Shown one piece after another: positions 3,001 to 6,000 of a stretch of 8,881 bases of DNA; position 1 is the first letter of the stretch, and each line of letters starts with the position of its first letter. Made by a program: the position numbers. The stretch lies in the IMG/VR virus record IMGVR_UViG_2529293214_000003, positions 1 to 8,881 of that record; one strand, given 5' to 3'. The stretch comes from a virus. Taxonomy: Duplodnaviria > Heunggongvirae > Uroviricota > Caudoviricetes.

Positions 3001-6000
3001 AGCGGAATTGAAAACGCCTCCGGCTCCAGCGTTGCCAGAACGTCGCTGGCAGTTGGCGTTAATCCACCAATCAGCAGGCCACCGATAACGCTCGCTTCGA
3101 TATCCTGTCTCATGCAATCCCCCTGTCTGCAAACTTCCCTTCCCGGACTCCCGTTAACGAGTCTTCTCTCAGCAGGTAATCAAAATCTGCCGTCCAGCCC
3201 GTGTCGTTGTCTCCGAAGTAAAACGGCTTGGCCTGATGCACAAACGCCCTGACATACGCTCTGAAACCGTCCACGTTTGGCGTTTTCAGTTGCGGGATGA
3301 TTTTCTTCAGGCGGCGTTTGCGTTTCTCGTTGACCTCAACAGCATGTGGAAGTCTGTCACCGACTTCTGTGTTGTAGGCGTTCAGGAAGGATTCGTAGTC
3401 GATTCGTTCTGCCTTGCGACGTTCAGGTTTAACCTGCCCATCGCCTCCCCCATTGGGGGGTAGGGGGGTATTATTTATATTCTTGTTAATACCTTCTTGT
3501 TCATGATGTGCGGTTGTTTGTGCGGCTTCATGTGCGCTTTCATGTGCGGCATGTTCGCTGAAATCCGCGCCATTACTGGCTTCGTCATGTGCGGCATCAT
3601 GTGCGGTTGTTTGTGCGGCTTCATGTGCGGGTGAATCGTCCATTTTTTGAGCATATTCATGGTAATTTGTGATGGTAATCACACGACCTTTTTGCTTCTC
3701 TCCATCAATGGTGATCATCCCCTCTTTCACAAAAACCTGAAGCATCCGCTCAACCTGATCGCGGCTTGCTGGCTTGCCATGCCTGTCGCATAACTGAAGA
3801 CCTAAATCAGCTGCTGTCACAACCAGTTGACCGGGTTGCAGATGCCATTCATGACCTTTGAAATTCGCTTTGTATGGCTTTCTGGTGGCATTCAGGAGAA
3901 GGTTTTCCCACAGGGTGCGAAGATAAACATCTTTCGCCCATGACTGTTTCAGAATGCTCCGGTACAACGGAATGTAACCAGTTTTCTGGTTCTCCATCCT
4001 GTTGCTCCTGCGCTCGTGTGCGGCGCTGAAATCGTAGATTTTTGCTGTATTGCTCATAACTACCTGCCTTGACGAAAGACCTTAAGAACATCGTTAAACT
4101 GACTTACGGATATGTCTTCTTTGAGCAGCTTTTCCAGAAATGCGTTTGGAATGAACGTATATCCCTCCTCTTTTGGTAGAGACGGGAGCAACGCCCTCGC
4201 CTCAGCCTTCAGAAGCTCAGTTCTGGCAACTTTCACAAAAGAGATTTGAGTTCTTTCATCAATGGAACGAAGGAAGCGCAAACGCTTAGCTTCTTTGTGT
4301 GTATCAGGTGGATTAAAGCCTTTGTTTCGCATATAATTACCTCGCTGGATGTTGTTAAAATTCCATTTGTATTTGTTCAGAACGCTCGGTTGCCGCCGGG
4401 CGTTTTTTATTGGTGAGTCCATCAAGCGCATACTTAAAAGCCCTGCTAATCGGACTGATGTCTGATGCCATTCCGAAAGCACACAAGACCGAAGCAATAA
4501 ACCTCCAGTCTGTTCTGCTTATCTTCGATTCATGACAGCCAATCATCTTTGCCAGACCGCGCTGGGTAAGCGTTGACAGGTTGATGAGTAAATCTGTTTC
4601 TGCGCGATCAACGTCACGCTGTGATAGTTTGCTGTAACTTGTTTGTTCCATTTCTTACTATTTCCATAGGTAAATAATCACTAATACTCATCTTTCGATG
4701 AGTGATTAATTAGTTACCGCGTTGTCGGCGGTGCAGATTGATAAAGAGCGGTGTTACTTATGCTGCCTGATTCGGTTTTGGAAACAGGTGTGGTAAATCT
4801 GGGCGGATTTCGTAAGCCTTGATCTGCCCTCCAGTGGCGTTAACAATGGCGGTAACTTTCTCTGGAGAGACCAACCCGCCTTTCAGCCATTTATGTACTG
4901 CTGGCTGCGTTACACCACACTTGTCGGCAAGGCGCTTTTGGCTACCGACAATTTTCAAGGCTCGTTGAATTACTAAATTCATGAGCATACCTCTTGTGGA
5001 CATTACTTATAACCAAAGATAACTCAAGTTATAAAAAATAGCAATAACCTTTGTTATTTTACTTTGGATAACCGTAGTTATAGATTTGTGGGTATGAAAA
5101 CATTCGCAGAAAGACTAAATGCAGCCATGAGCTCAGCAGGGGTGTCACAATCACAGCTTGCTGACATGGTTGGAATATCTCAGCCAGCCATACAGAAGAT
5201 GTCATCCGGTAAAACAAACGGATCTCGCAAGATGGTTGAATTAGCCAATGCTTTAAAAGTACGCCCTGAATGGCTTAGCTCAGGTATTGGTGAAATGAGG
5301 GATGGTGCACATGAAGAGCCATCGAATGTGCGTGAGTCATCTTTAAAAGCGGTGGTATGGGAAGACATAAAAAGAAACGATGACGAGTTTGTCGCATTGC
5401 CTCTTCTTAATGTTTCTCTTTCCGCCGGGAGTGGTAGCTGTGAGTTAGAGGAATCATCTGAGTTCTCTTTGGTTTTCAGAAAGTACTATCTGAAAAAGAT
5501 GGGGGTATCTGAAAGCTCTGCCAAGCTGGTTAGGGTGATAGGCCAAAGCATGGAGCCAACCCTTCACGATGGTGATGTTGTTGGAGTCAACACGCAAGAC
5601 ACCACCATCAGAGATGGTAAAACCTACGCTATTTGTCAATCTGATTTACTAAGAGTAAAGACATTAATAGCCACACCTACATCCGTGATAATCAGATCAA
5701 TAAATCGCGAAGAGTACCCTGATGAAGTAATGGATAGAGATGAGTTTCATGAAACAGTAAGGATTATTGGCAGAGTATTCTGGTCATCACATAGCTGGTA
5801 ACCAGTGGCCTGAAGAAACGTTTGGGTGAGGAGGATAGATGGCGTTCACTGACCTTGAATATCAAGCGGTCAAAAAAGAAGTTCACCAATTCATTGAAAG
5901 CATAAGGCCGCCTGAACATATCCGCAATGAACTGGATATTGTTTATAGCATCAATGACCAAACGATAGATATCGGCGAACAGCGCCCCGTGTGGCAGGGC

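Follow-up and report, generated by a model that had tools for sequence, protein, structure and literature searches.

A conserved small gene separating cII from the replication initiator in a lambdoid Shiga-toxin prophage: candidate first cistron of a helicase-encoding replication module

The subject of this study is a small open reading frame (ORF) located between cII and the O-like replication initiator gene in an 8,881 nt stretch of viral DNA (Caudoviricetes; IMG/VR record IMGVR_UViG_2529293214_000003, positions 1 to 8,881), here called the window, which covers the immunity and replication genes of a lambdoid prophage whose early-right operon lies mostly on the minus strand. The ORF is very probably a real translated gene. 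We favour an explanation, to which we assign a probability of about 0.5 as a whole, where this gene is the genuine first cistron of the replication module and encodes a chimeric protein with an accessory role. It is followed by the O initiator and then by a DnaB-type helicase. Judging from the layout, it would be transcribed rightward from pR after cII, and its start codon and ribosome-binding site would lie under the -10 element and the 5' end of the antisense oop RNA.

The kind of gene is already known from the literature. Hayes et al. 2012 (PMC3349717) described the lambdoid layout cII-oop-orf-O-P, stated that lambda “is naturally missing” the orf found in P22, and gave hkaW of HK620 and gp53 of HK97 and HK022 as other orf examples from this slot. 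The window has this arrangement: a small same-strand ORF lies between the end of cII/oop and O, an antisense -10 covers its start, and a terminator is found in the 3' end of cII. The gene itself is an ordinary conserved hypothetical gene that is already present in RefSeq and PHROGs. What the current analysis adds is the apparent chimeric make-up of the protein and its apparent association with helicase-encoding modules, which together form a concrete, testable hypothesis. The features on which the argument is based are as follows.

4060-4332, minus strand: the small ORF, 90 aa plus a TAG stop, assigned to PHROG 2519 and identical to RefSeq WP_001244621.1
4339-4343, minus strand: GAGGT ribosome-binding site of the small ORF, read from the sequence, with a 6-nt spacer to the ATG; kept in homologous loci
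4252-4311, minus strand: codons 8-27 (PPDTHKEAKRLRFLRSIDER) with the basic N-terminal motif HKxxxRxRFLxS, common to P22 orf48, DUF2740 and PHROG 1913
4069-4170, minus strand: codons 55-88 (EEGYTFIPNAFLEKLLKEDISVSQFNDVLKVFRQ), like the start of the Phage_rep_O winged-helix domain and probably homologous to lambda O residues 26-59
4063-4070, minus strand: AAGGCAGG, a Shine-Dalgarno-like sequence for O within the last codons of the small ORF
4355-4651, minus strand: cII gene, 98 aa, upstream neighbour of the small ORF (Pfam Phage_CII, E 7.8e-35; phrog_191), with its TAA stop at 4357-4355
3110-4057, minus strand: O-like replication initiator, 315 aa, with a start that abuts the small ORF
720-3113, minus strand: DnaB-family replicative helicase of 797 aa with an intein insertion; third gene of the replication module

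The ATG of the small ORF (4332-4330) is found 22 nt after the cII stop, while its TAG (4062-4060) is separated from the O ATG at 4057 by “TT” alone. The first-pass annotation, made from the sequence without database searches, had described a 90-aa ORF with a GAGGT ribosome-binding site that fills the gap between cII and O and abuts the O start, and the sequence agrees with this in every detail. That the gene is extra relative to lambda, as was also proposed, is borne out by an alignment with lambda, in which the distance from the cII stop to the O start is about 275 bases greater in the window. A mechanical ORF list contains an alternative 145-aa version with a TTG start (4497-4060) that overlaps cII. 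This start is rejected, as no homolog backs the 145-aa form and all homologs begin at an MRNK-type methionine (MR(N/K)...). The internal ATG had been preferred at first pass, and it corresponds to the 273-nt coding sequence used by RefSeq/PGAP and in the records of phages Kapi1 and JEP4. The product had been called Lys/Arg-rich and unrecognised. It is indeed basic (10.5 kDa, 18 K+R vs 12 D+E, pI 10.0), but it does not lack relatives, being catalogued as PHROG 2519 and as the “hypothetical protein” WP_001244621.1, and its last 34 residues are O-like.

The small ORF matches the PHROG 2519 profile along its whole length (E 1.9e-57, residues 1-90 on positions 1-90 of 90), as do all 19 of the aligned homologs. 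It was found in 285 of 5426 complete E. coli genomes and in 57 phage records, including those of P22-like phages (CUS-3, JEP4, Kapi1, Gally, HF4s), Stx2a phages and one Salmonella phage (74% identity). A 2.7-kb unannotated record labelled “Staphylococcus phage” (OR850084) gave exactly the same match as the Salmonella phage. Searches of 5.8 billion proteins by word index and of 1.84 billion representatives by a full hidden Markov model search, the latter giving 15 matches, both recovered a small family that occurs only in Enterobacteriaceae and whose full-length members are stand-alone proteins of 52-93 aa. The scan of genome contigs, which relied on exact peptide patterns, returned 2 loci. In other Enterobacteriaceae, homologs with 41-80% identity are found in the identical slot, after cII and before O and the helicase gene.

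That the sequence evolves as a protein-coding gene is indicated by its substitution pattern. When compared to the homologs of Salmonella phage S.Inf 5-2 and of metagenome-assembled genomes (MAGs) from Scandinavium and Pseudescherichia (72-80% protein identity), the ratio of nonsynonymous to synonymous change (dN/dS) is 0.06-0.21. The proportion of synonymous differences (pS) is about 0.5-1.0 across the homologs compared, which is near saturation, and differences at third codon positions are 2-5 times those at positions 1 and 2. Both the N-terminal and the C-terminal half are constrained, no change is seen at 42 of the 90 residues among members that have 71-96% identity to the window protein, and frame and length are preserved in members with as little as 41-53% identity, from four or more genera. 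The purifying selection, together with the full-length PHROG 2519 match, upholds the initial proposal of a genuine small gene between cII and the initiator. In close relatives the ORF is, as a rule, neither absent nor frameshifted, with occasional frameshifted or fused variants (P0022, P0024, P0028, P0030).

We picture the protein as a basic N-terminal part (residues about 8-50) joined to a 34-residue tail that would resemble the first strand-helix-helix of the O winged-helix domain. For the N-terminal part, a comparison with orf48/DUF2740 by hhalign gave P values of 0.0023 and 0.027 over 18-19 residues, a weak but reciprocal match, and phrog_1913 was matched by 6 of the 19 family members (best E 0.0024). 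No member of the family matched the PF10872 (DUF2740) model at E up to 5. A relationship of this part to orf48 is weakly indicated. P22 orf48 resembles the small ORF in several respects: it follows oop and c1, the cII homolog, and precedes gene 18, the initiator, with a DnaB-like helicase further along; it is small and basic (pI 10.4); it carries HKxxxRxRFLxS; and it is closely joined to the initiator start, which it overlaps by 8 nt. It differs in its length (48 aa vs 90) and in having no O-like C-terminal segment, and the homology covers only about 18 residues. The gp53 proteins of HK97 and HK022 (PHROG 1331) are likewise small and basic, occupy the same slot, overlap the O start and precede O and a helicase, but their sequence similarity to the window protein is undetectable.

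For the tail the correspondence is closer. Residues 55-88 align with residues 26-59 of lambda O (DDGYARLSNMLLEAYSGADLTKRQFKVLLAILRK), and hhalign against O proteins of the lambda/P22/HK97 type gave P 1.5e-5 and a probability of 79%. PF04492 was matched by 16 of the 19 members at positions about 6-39 of 95 (best E 5.2e-5) and the O-like phrog_678 by 15 of the 19; the authors of the Kapi1 record had noted a CDD Phage_rep_O motif in their copy. That the segment is derived from O is likely, and we hold this with some confidence. It is, however, far from a complete PF04492 domain, as the score is 14.6 bits vs a cut-off of 28.7 bits and only positions 6-39 of 95 are covered. The small protein ends with FRQGR and a stop where O proteins go on with RKTYG(W/Y/F)NK (RKTYGWNK in lambda O), so that the tail appears to stop before the recognition helix and wing, which are taken to be the DNA-reading part. 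As it ends exactly where the recognition helix would begin, the small protein is not an initiator and cannot bind an origin in the manner of O. Compared with lambda O and PF04492, it has about 34 of the 95 domain positions, without the recognition helix, the wing or the C-terminal partner-binding domain, and a complete O is encoded separately, downstream of it.

An AlphaFold model based on 19 sequences is confident (pLDDT 83.7) and predicts a four-helix protein with helices at residues 10-23, 26-51, 63-71 and 76-87 and a short hairpin at 54-59. No meaningful structural neighbour of this model was found, and sequence searches of the PDB with the family profile and with lambda O gave no matches. 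Among the 1.84 billion representatives, none carried the N-terminal part of the small protein on a full-length O-like protein. The chimera may have originated through fusion of a gene like orf48 with what was left of the 5' end of an O gene after another initiator had taken its place, the product then being retained by selection.

The second element of the favoured explanation is the type of module in which such ORFs occur. The gene following cII was surveyed in 23 loci, a small sample in which the loci are not independent, as the module is inherited as a block. A small ORF occupies the slot in all 17 loci where the module encodes its own helicase (DnaB-like or Toprim-AAA_25), and in none of the 5 loci with a loader-type module, where a lambda-P-type or DnaC-like protein follows O. 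The one locus left out of the count was Hafnia phage yong1, which has a different module with a slot gene annotated as DNA polymerase III beta subunit. PHROG 2519 fills the slot in the window, JEP4, Kapi1, S.Inf 5-2 and the loci L005-L008, L015 and L017, and the order cII, small ORF, O-like gene, DnaB-type helicase is found in all 10. PHROG 1913/DUF2740 is found in P22, Erwinia phage Midgardsormr38, a Stx1-converting phage and Min27, and PHROG 1331 in HK97, HK75 and epsilon34; the helicase is a Toprim-AAA_25 primase-helicase in epsilon34 and Min27. The loader-type loci without a small ORF are those of lambda, ev017, mEpX1, Klebsiella phage Kp4862-1 and Yersinia phage 29.18, and in the last two the N-terminal domain of O is 72-75% identical to that of the window. 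PHROG 2519 members adjoin at least 3 types of O N-terminal domain, which argues that the small ORF is not tied to origin specificity. The survey is consistent with the small ORFs being a functional part of replication modules that encode their own helicase.

We suggest that the protein might act as an accessory factor which contacts the initiator or the phage helicase via its O-like surface and so tunes the assembly of the origin complex in modules with their own helicase. Such a role in initiator/helicase assembly, possibly by mimicry of the N-terminal surface of O, is put forward only tentatively. More speculative still, and in our judgement unlikely in this general form, is the proposal that the slot ORFs (PHROG 2519, DUF2740/orf48, gp53) constitute a third component of lambdoid modules with their own helicase, which would replace a P/DnaC-type loader or tune O-helicase assembly, PHROG 2519 being a “domesticated recombination scar” with an O-mimicking surface. 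If the small protein did take part in the assembly of the origin complex or of the helicase, the two-gene textbook picture of P22/HK97-type replication (initiator and helicase) would gain a third player, and the loading of phage DnaB-like helicases without a P- or DnaC-like loader could be explained. The locus would also be a clean case of a gene fragment from mosaic recombination that is retained within a new small protein.

Several points weigh against the favoured explanation. The N-terminal homology to orf48 is statistically weak, and the tail resembles O of the lambda/P22 type and not the divergent O encoded in the window itself (hhalign E 0.18, not significant). The pairing with several unrelated O N-terminal domains speaks against a specific contact with the DNA-binding domain of O. 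The helicase association may merely reflect inheritance of the module as a unit, with recombination at the conserved oop/pO region making the loci non-independent. Literature searches for DUF2740, hkaW, phrog_2519 and WP_001244621 found nothing on translation or function, P22 orf48 included. Replication of P22 is usually described with genes 18 and 12 only, so that the small slot ORFs may be dispensable.

It is also conceivable, but unlikely, that the gene encodes a factor for the lysis-lysogeny decision or for host takeover which is unrelated to replication, such as a protease inhibitor that acts like cIII to stabilise cII, or a protein that blocks a function of the host or of a competitor, its position being an accident of history. 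The gene shares an operon with cII and comes directly after it, its product is small, basic and helical, as are many phage peptides that modulate the host, and the slot holds unrelated families, as do the sites of accessory genes (“morons”). Yet the tight coupling is always to the start of O and not to cII, and the small ORF tracks helicase-encoding modules regardless of the cII allele. The small protein also carries a segment that is probably derived from O, no PADLOC profile or NCBIfam named family matched the small protein, and the window appears to have a cIII of its own, as indicated by the thermometer element at 8844-8881.

The junction with O bears both on the favoured explanation, in which the small ORF and O are cistrons of one module, and on an alternative where the small ORF is mainly a translated leader. 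In all 10 junctions that were compared, including those of P22 and HK97, stop and start lie 2 nt apart or overlap by 4-14 nt, and a purine-rich sequence of the Shine-Dalgarno type is present. In the window the stop is found 2 nt before the O start and the Shine-Dalgarno-like sequence of O is contained within the small ORF, and for these reasons translation of O is, on balance, probably coupled to that of the small ORF. A leader would set the level of O through ribosomes that are delivered to the O start or unfold it, its peptide having little or no function, and would account for the conservation of the abutment or overlap and of the internal Shine-Dalgarno-like sequence across three unrelated slot families. 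We consider it quite improbable. The conserved amino acids would not be needed, yet low dN/dS values extend over the full length and nearly half of the residues are invariant, and O is expressed in lambda-type modules that lack such a leader.

Fusion of the small ORF to O via a programmed frameshift was also considered and rejected, as the stop/start geometry varies among homologs, which share no common slippery site. The O start itself (3998-4057, minus strand) is inconsistent in the records: PGAP and JEP4 use the internal Met21 (888 nt), and Kapi1 uses the 948-nt form that abuts the small ORF. In lambda, the N-terminus of O (MTNTAKILNF) is recognised by ClpX. The long, 948-nt form would be favoured for the window, since its N-terminus (MSNTAKIYDF) is kept across homologs and resembles that of lambda O.

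If the region were an inert recombination scar, i.e. the 5' leftover of a displaced O, it would be conserved only via cis elements (pO and the O ribosome-binding site) or because of recent divergence. The origin of such a scar is easily imagined, as the C-terminal 34 residues represent a fragment of an O of another type than the resident one, lambdoid genomes are mosaic, and the truncated or fused variants mentioned above do exist. However, protein identities of 72-80% at saturated synonymous sites indicate selection on the protein and not on the DNA, which rules out an inert or purely cis-acting region, and this substitution pattern largely refutes the scar. In addition, the cis elements cover the first and last few codons only, and frame and length are kept across genera at low identity. 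We thus regard a scar as highly improbable; even when combined with the possibility that the region acts through antisense RNA alone, its probability would be very small, as both are contradicted by the pattern of substitution.

The antisense unit consists of the following elements.

4332-4337, plus strand: TATAAT, a perfect and putative -10 element of the oop promoter (pO), from the alignment of loci, overlapping the start codon of the small ORF
4344-4412, plus strand: predicted oop-like antisense RNA of about 69 nt, with a deduced 5' end, complementary to the 3' end of cII
4379-4406, plus strand: oop terminator hairpin in the 3' end of cII, followed by a T run; identical in sequence to that of lambda in the alignment

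The predicted RNA folds so as to form the terminator hairpin and has a fold energy of -21 kcal/mol (z -2.85). The -35 of the pO-like promoter is poor (3/6 by reading), and a consensus promoter scan of 3900-4800 called no promoter. All of 12 aligned loci show an antisense (CAT)ATAAT over the start codon of the gene after cII and, by eye, a hairpin with a T run is kept about 35-70 nt downstream, with a stem sequence that varies between loci. From these features, the oop unit appears to be intact. As in lambda (CATAAT), the antisense -10 lies over the first start codon after cII, this being the start of O in lambda but of the small ORF in the window and in P22. The P22 record has the oop promoter annotated over the orf48 start, which is the same layout. 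The oop RNA is 77 nt in lambda and about 69 nt by prediction here, since the spacer is 22 nt vs 32 nt in lambda. When the whole window was scanned with Rfam (E up to 1), nothing was returned at the cII-O junction, the matches being the cIII thermometer and a sub-threshold one at 8340-8418.

The first-pass annotation had set an oop-like antisense RNA against the gene as an alternative. The oop unit is indeed present, but gene and RNA seem to coexist, with an overlap that would be confined to the ribosome-binding site and start codon of the small ORF. It is hardly credible that the region acts only via oop with an untranslated small ORF, despite the clear presence of the unit with its lambda-identical terminator and perfect antisense TATAAT, as oop spans about 4344-4412, upstream of the ORF body and overlapping its ribosome-binding site only, and the other 270 nt of the ORF, which are not covered by oop, show the substitution pattern of coding sequence.

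The practical value of the comparison lies in annotation, as equivalent ORFs are unannotated in two phage records. In the Stx1-converting phage NC_004913 (L026, 3130-3276), an orf48/DUF2740/PHROG 1913 ORF overlaps the initiator start by 8 nt, and in Min27 (EU311208; L019, about 3323-3466) the overlap of such an ORF is 4 nt. PHROGs describes PHROG 1913 as a “tail protein”, and this label has been carried over into other records, for example to ORF62 of Midgardsormr38. It is almost certainly wrong, given the constant position between cII and the initiator.

The wider setting is that of a Shiga-toxin prophage. Over the cII-O junction (4040-4360) the window shows 100% identity with a prophage of E. 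coli O121 strain RM8352, and over 3900-4700 it shows 99.1% identity with a series of Stx2a-converting phages. Further features of the window are these.

5064-5801, plus strand: cI-like repressor gene
5003-4758, minus strand: cro-like gene
3504-3630, plus strand: six iteron-like repeats (TCATGTGCGG), partly with 12-bp spacing, inside the O gene

The repeats gave 8 matches vs 0.65 expected, and the six at 3504-3630 presumably represent the origin. The array encodes the repetitive AHEAA/AHDAA linker of O. An additional copy with 1 mismatch is found at 4014-4023 in the 5' part of O; the repeat scan found no O-binding iterons in the small ORF.

The intein of the helicase has about 340 aa (residues 203-540, approximately, with its end at ...VTHN|TELA), and intein-free homologs have 455-458 aa. 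NCBIfam DnaB matches are split around the insert, within which there are weak matches to an intein-containing RecA model and to an RpoA'' model. In RM8352 the gene is present in PGAP as two pieces, one of them flagged as incomplete/pseudo. The Toprim-type helicase of Min27 also has Hint and LAGLIDADG domains.

A match to the Rfam model Lambda_thermo (the cIII thermometer) at 8844-8881 on the plus strand is cut by the end of the window (47.7 bits vs a gathering score of 50, E 5.5e-9), and implies that a cIII gene starts just past that end. Directly downstream of cI, an ORF at 5839-6180 (plus strand) encodes a DUF3024 protein of 113 aa, for which PADLOC gave a match to PDC-S43, a candidate defence family (E 7e-42). 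It is followed on the same strand as cI by an ORF of 177 aa (6370-6903, plus strand), where PGAP has a shorter NYN-domain protein in RM8352. The two ORFs occupy what we take to be the position of rexAB in lambda, and may represent a prophage-expressed defence cassette.

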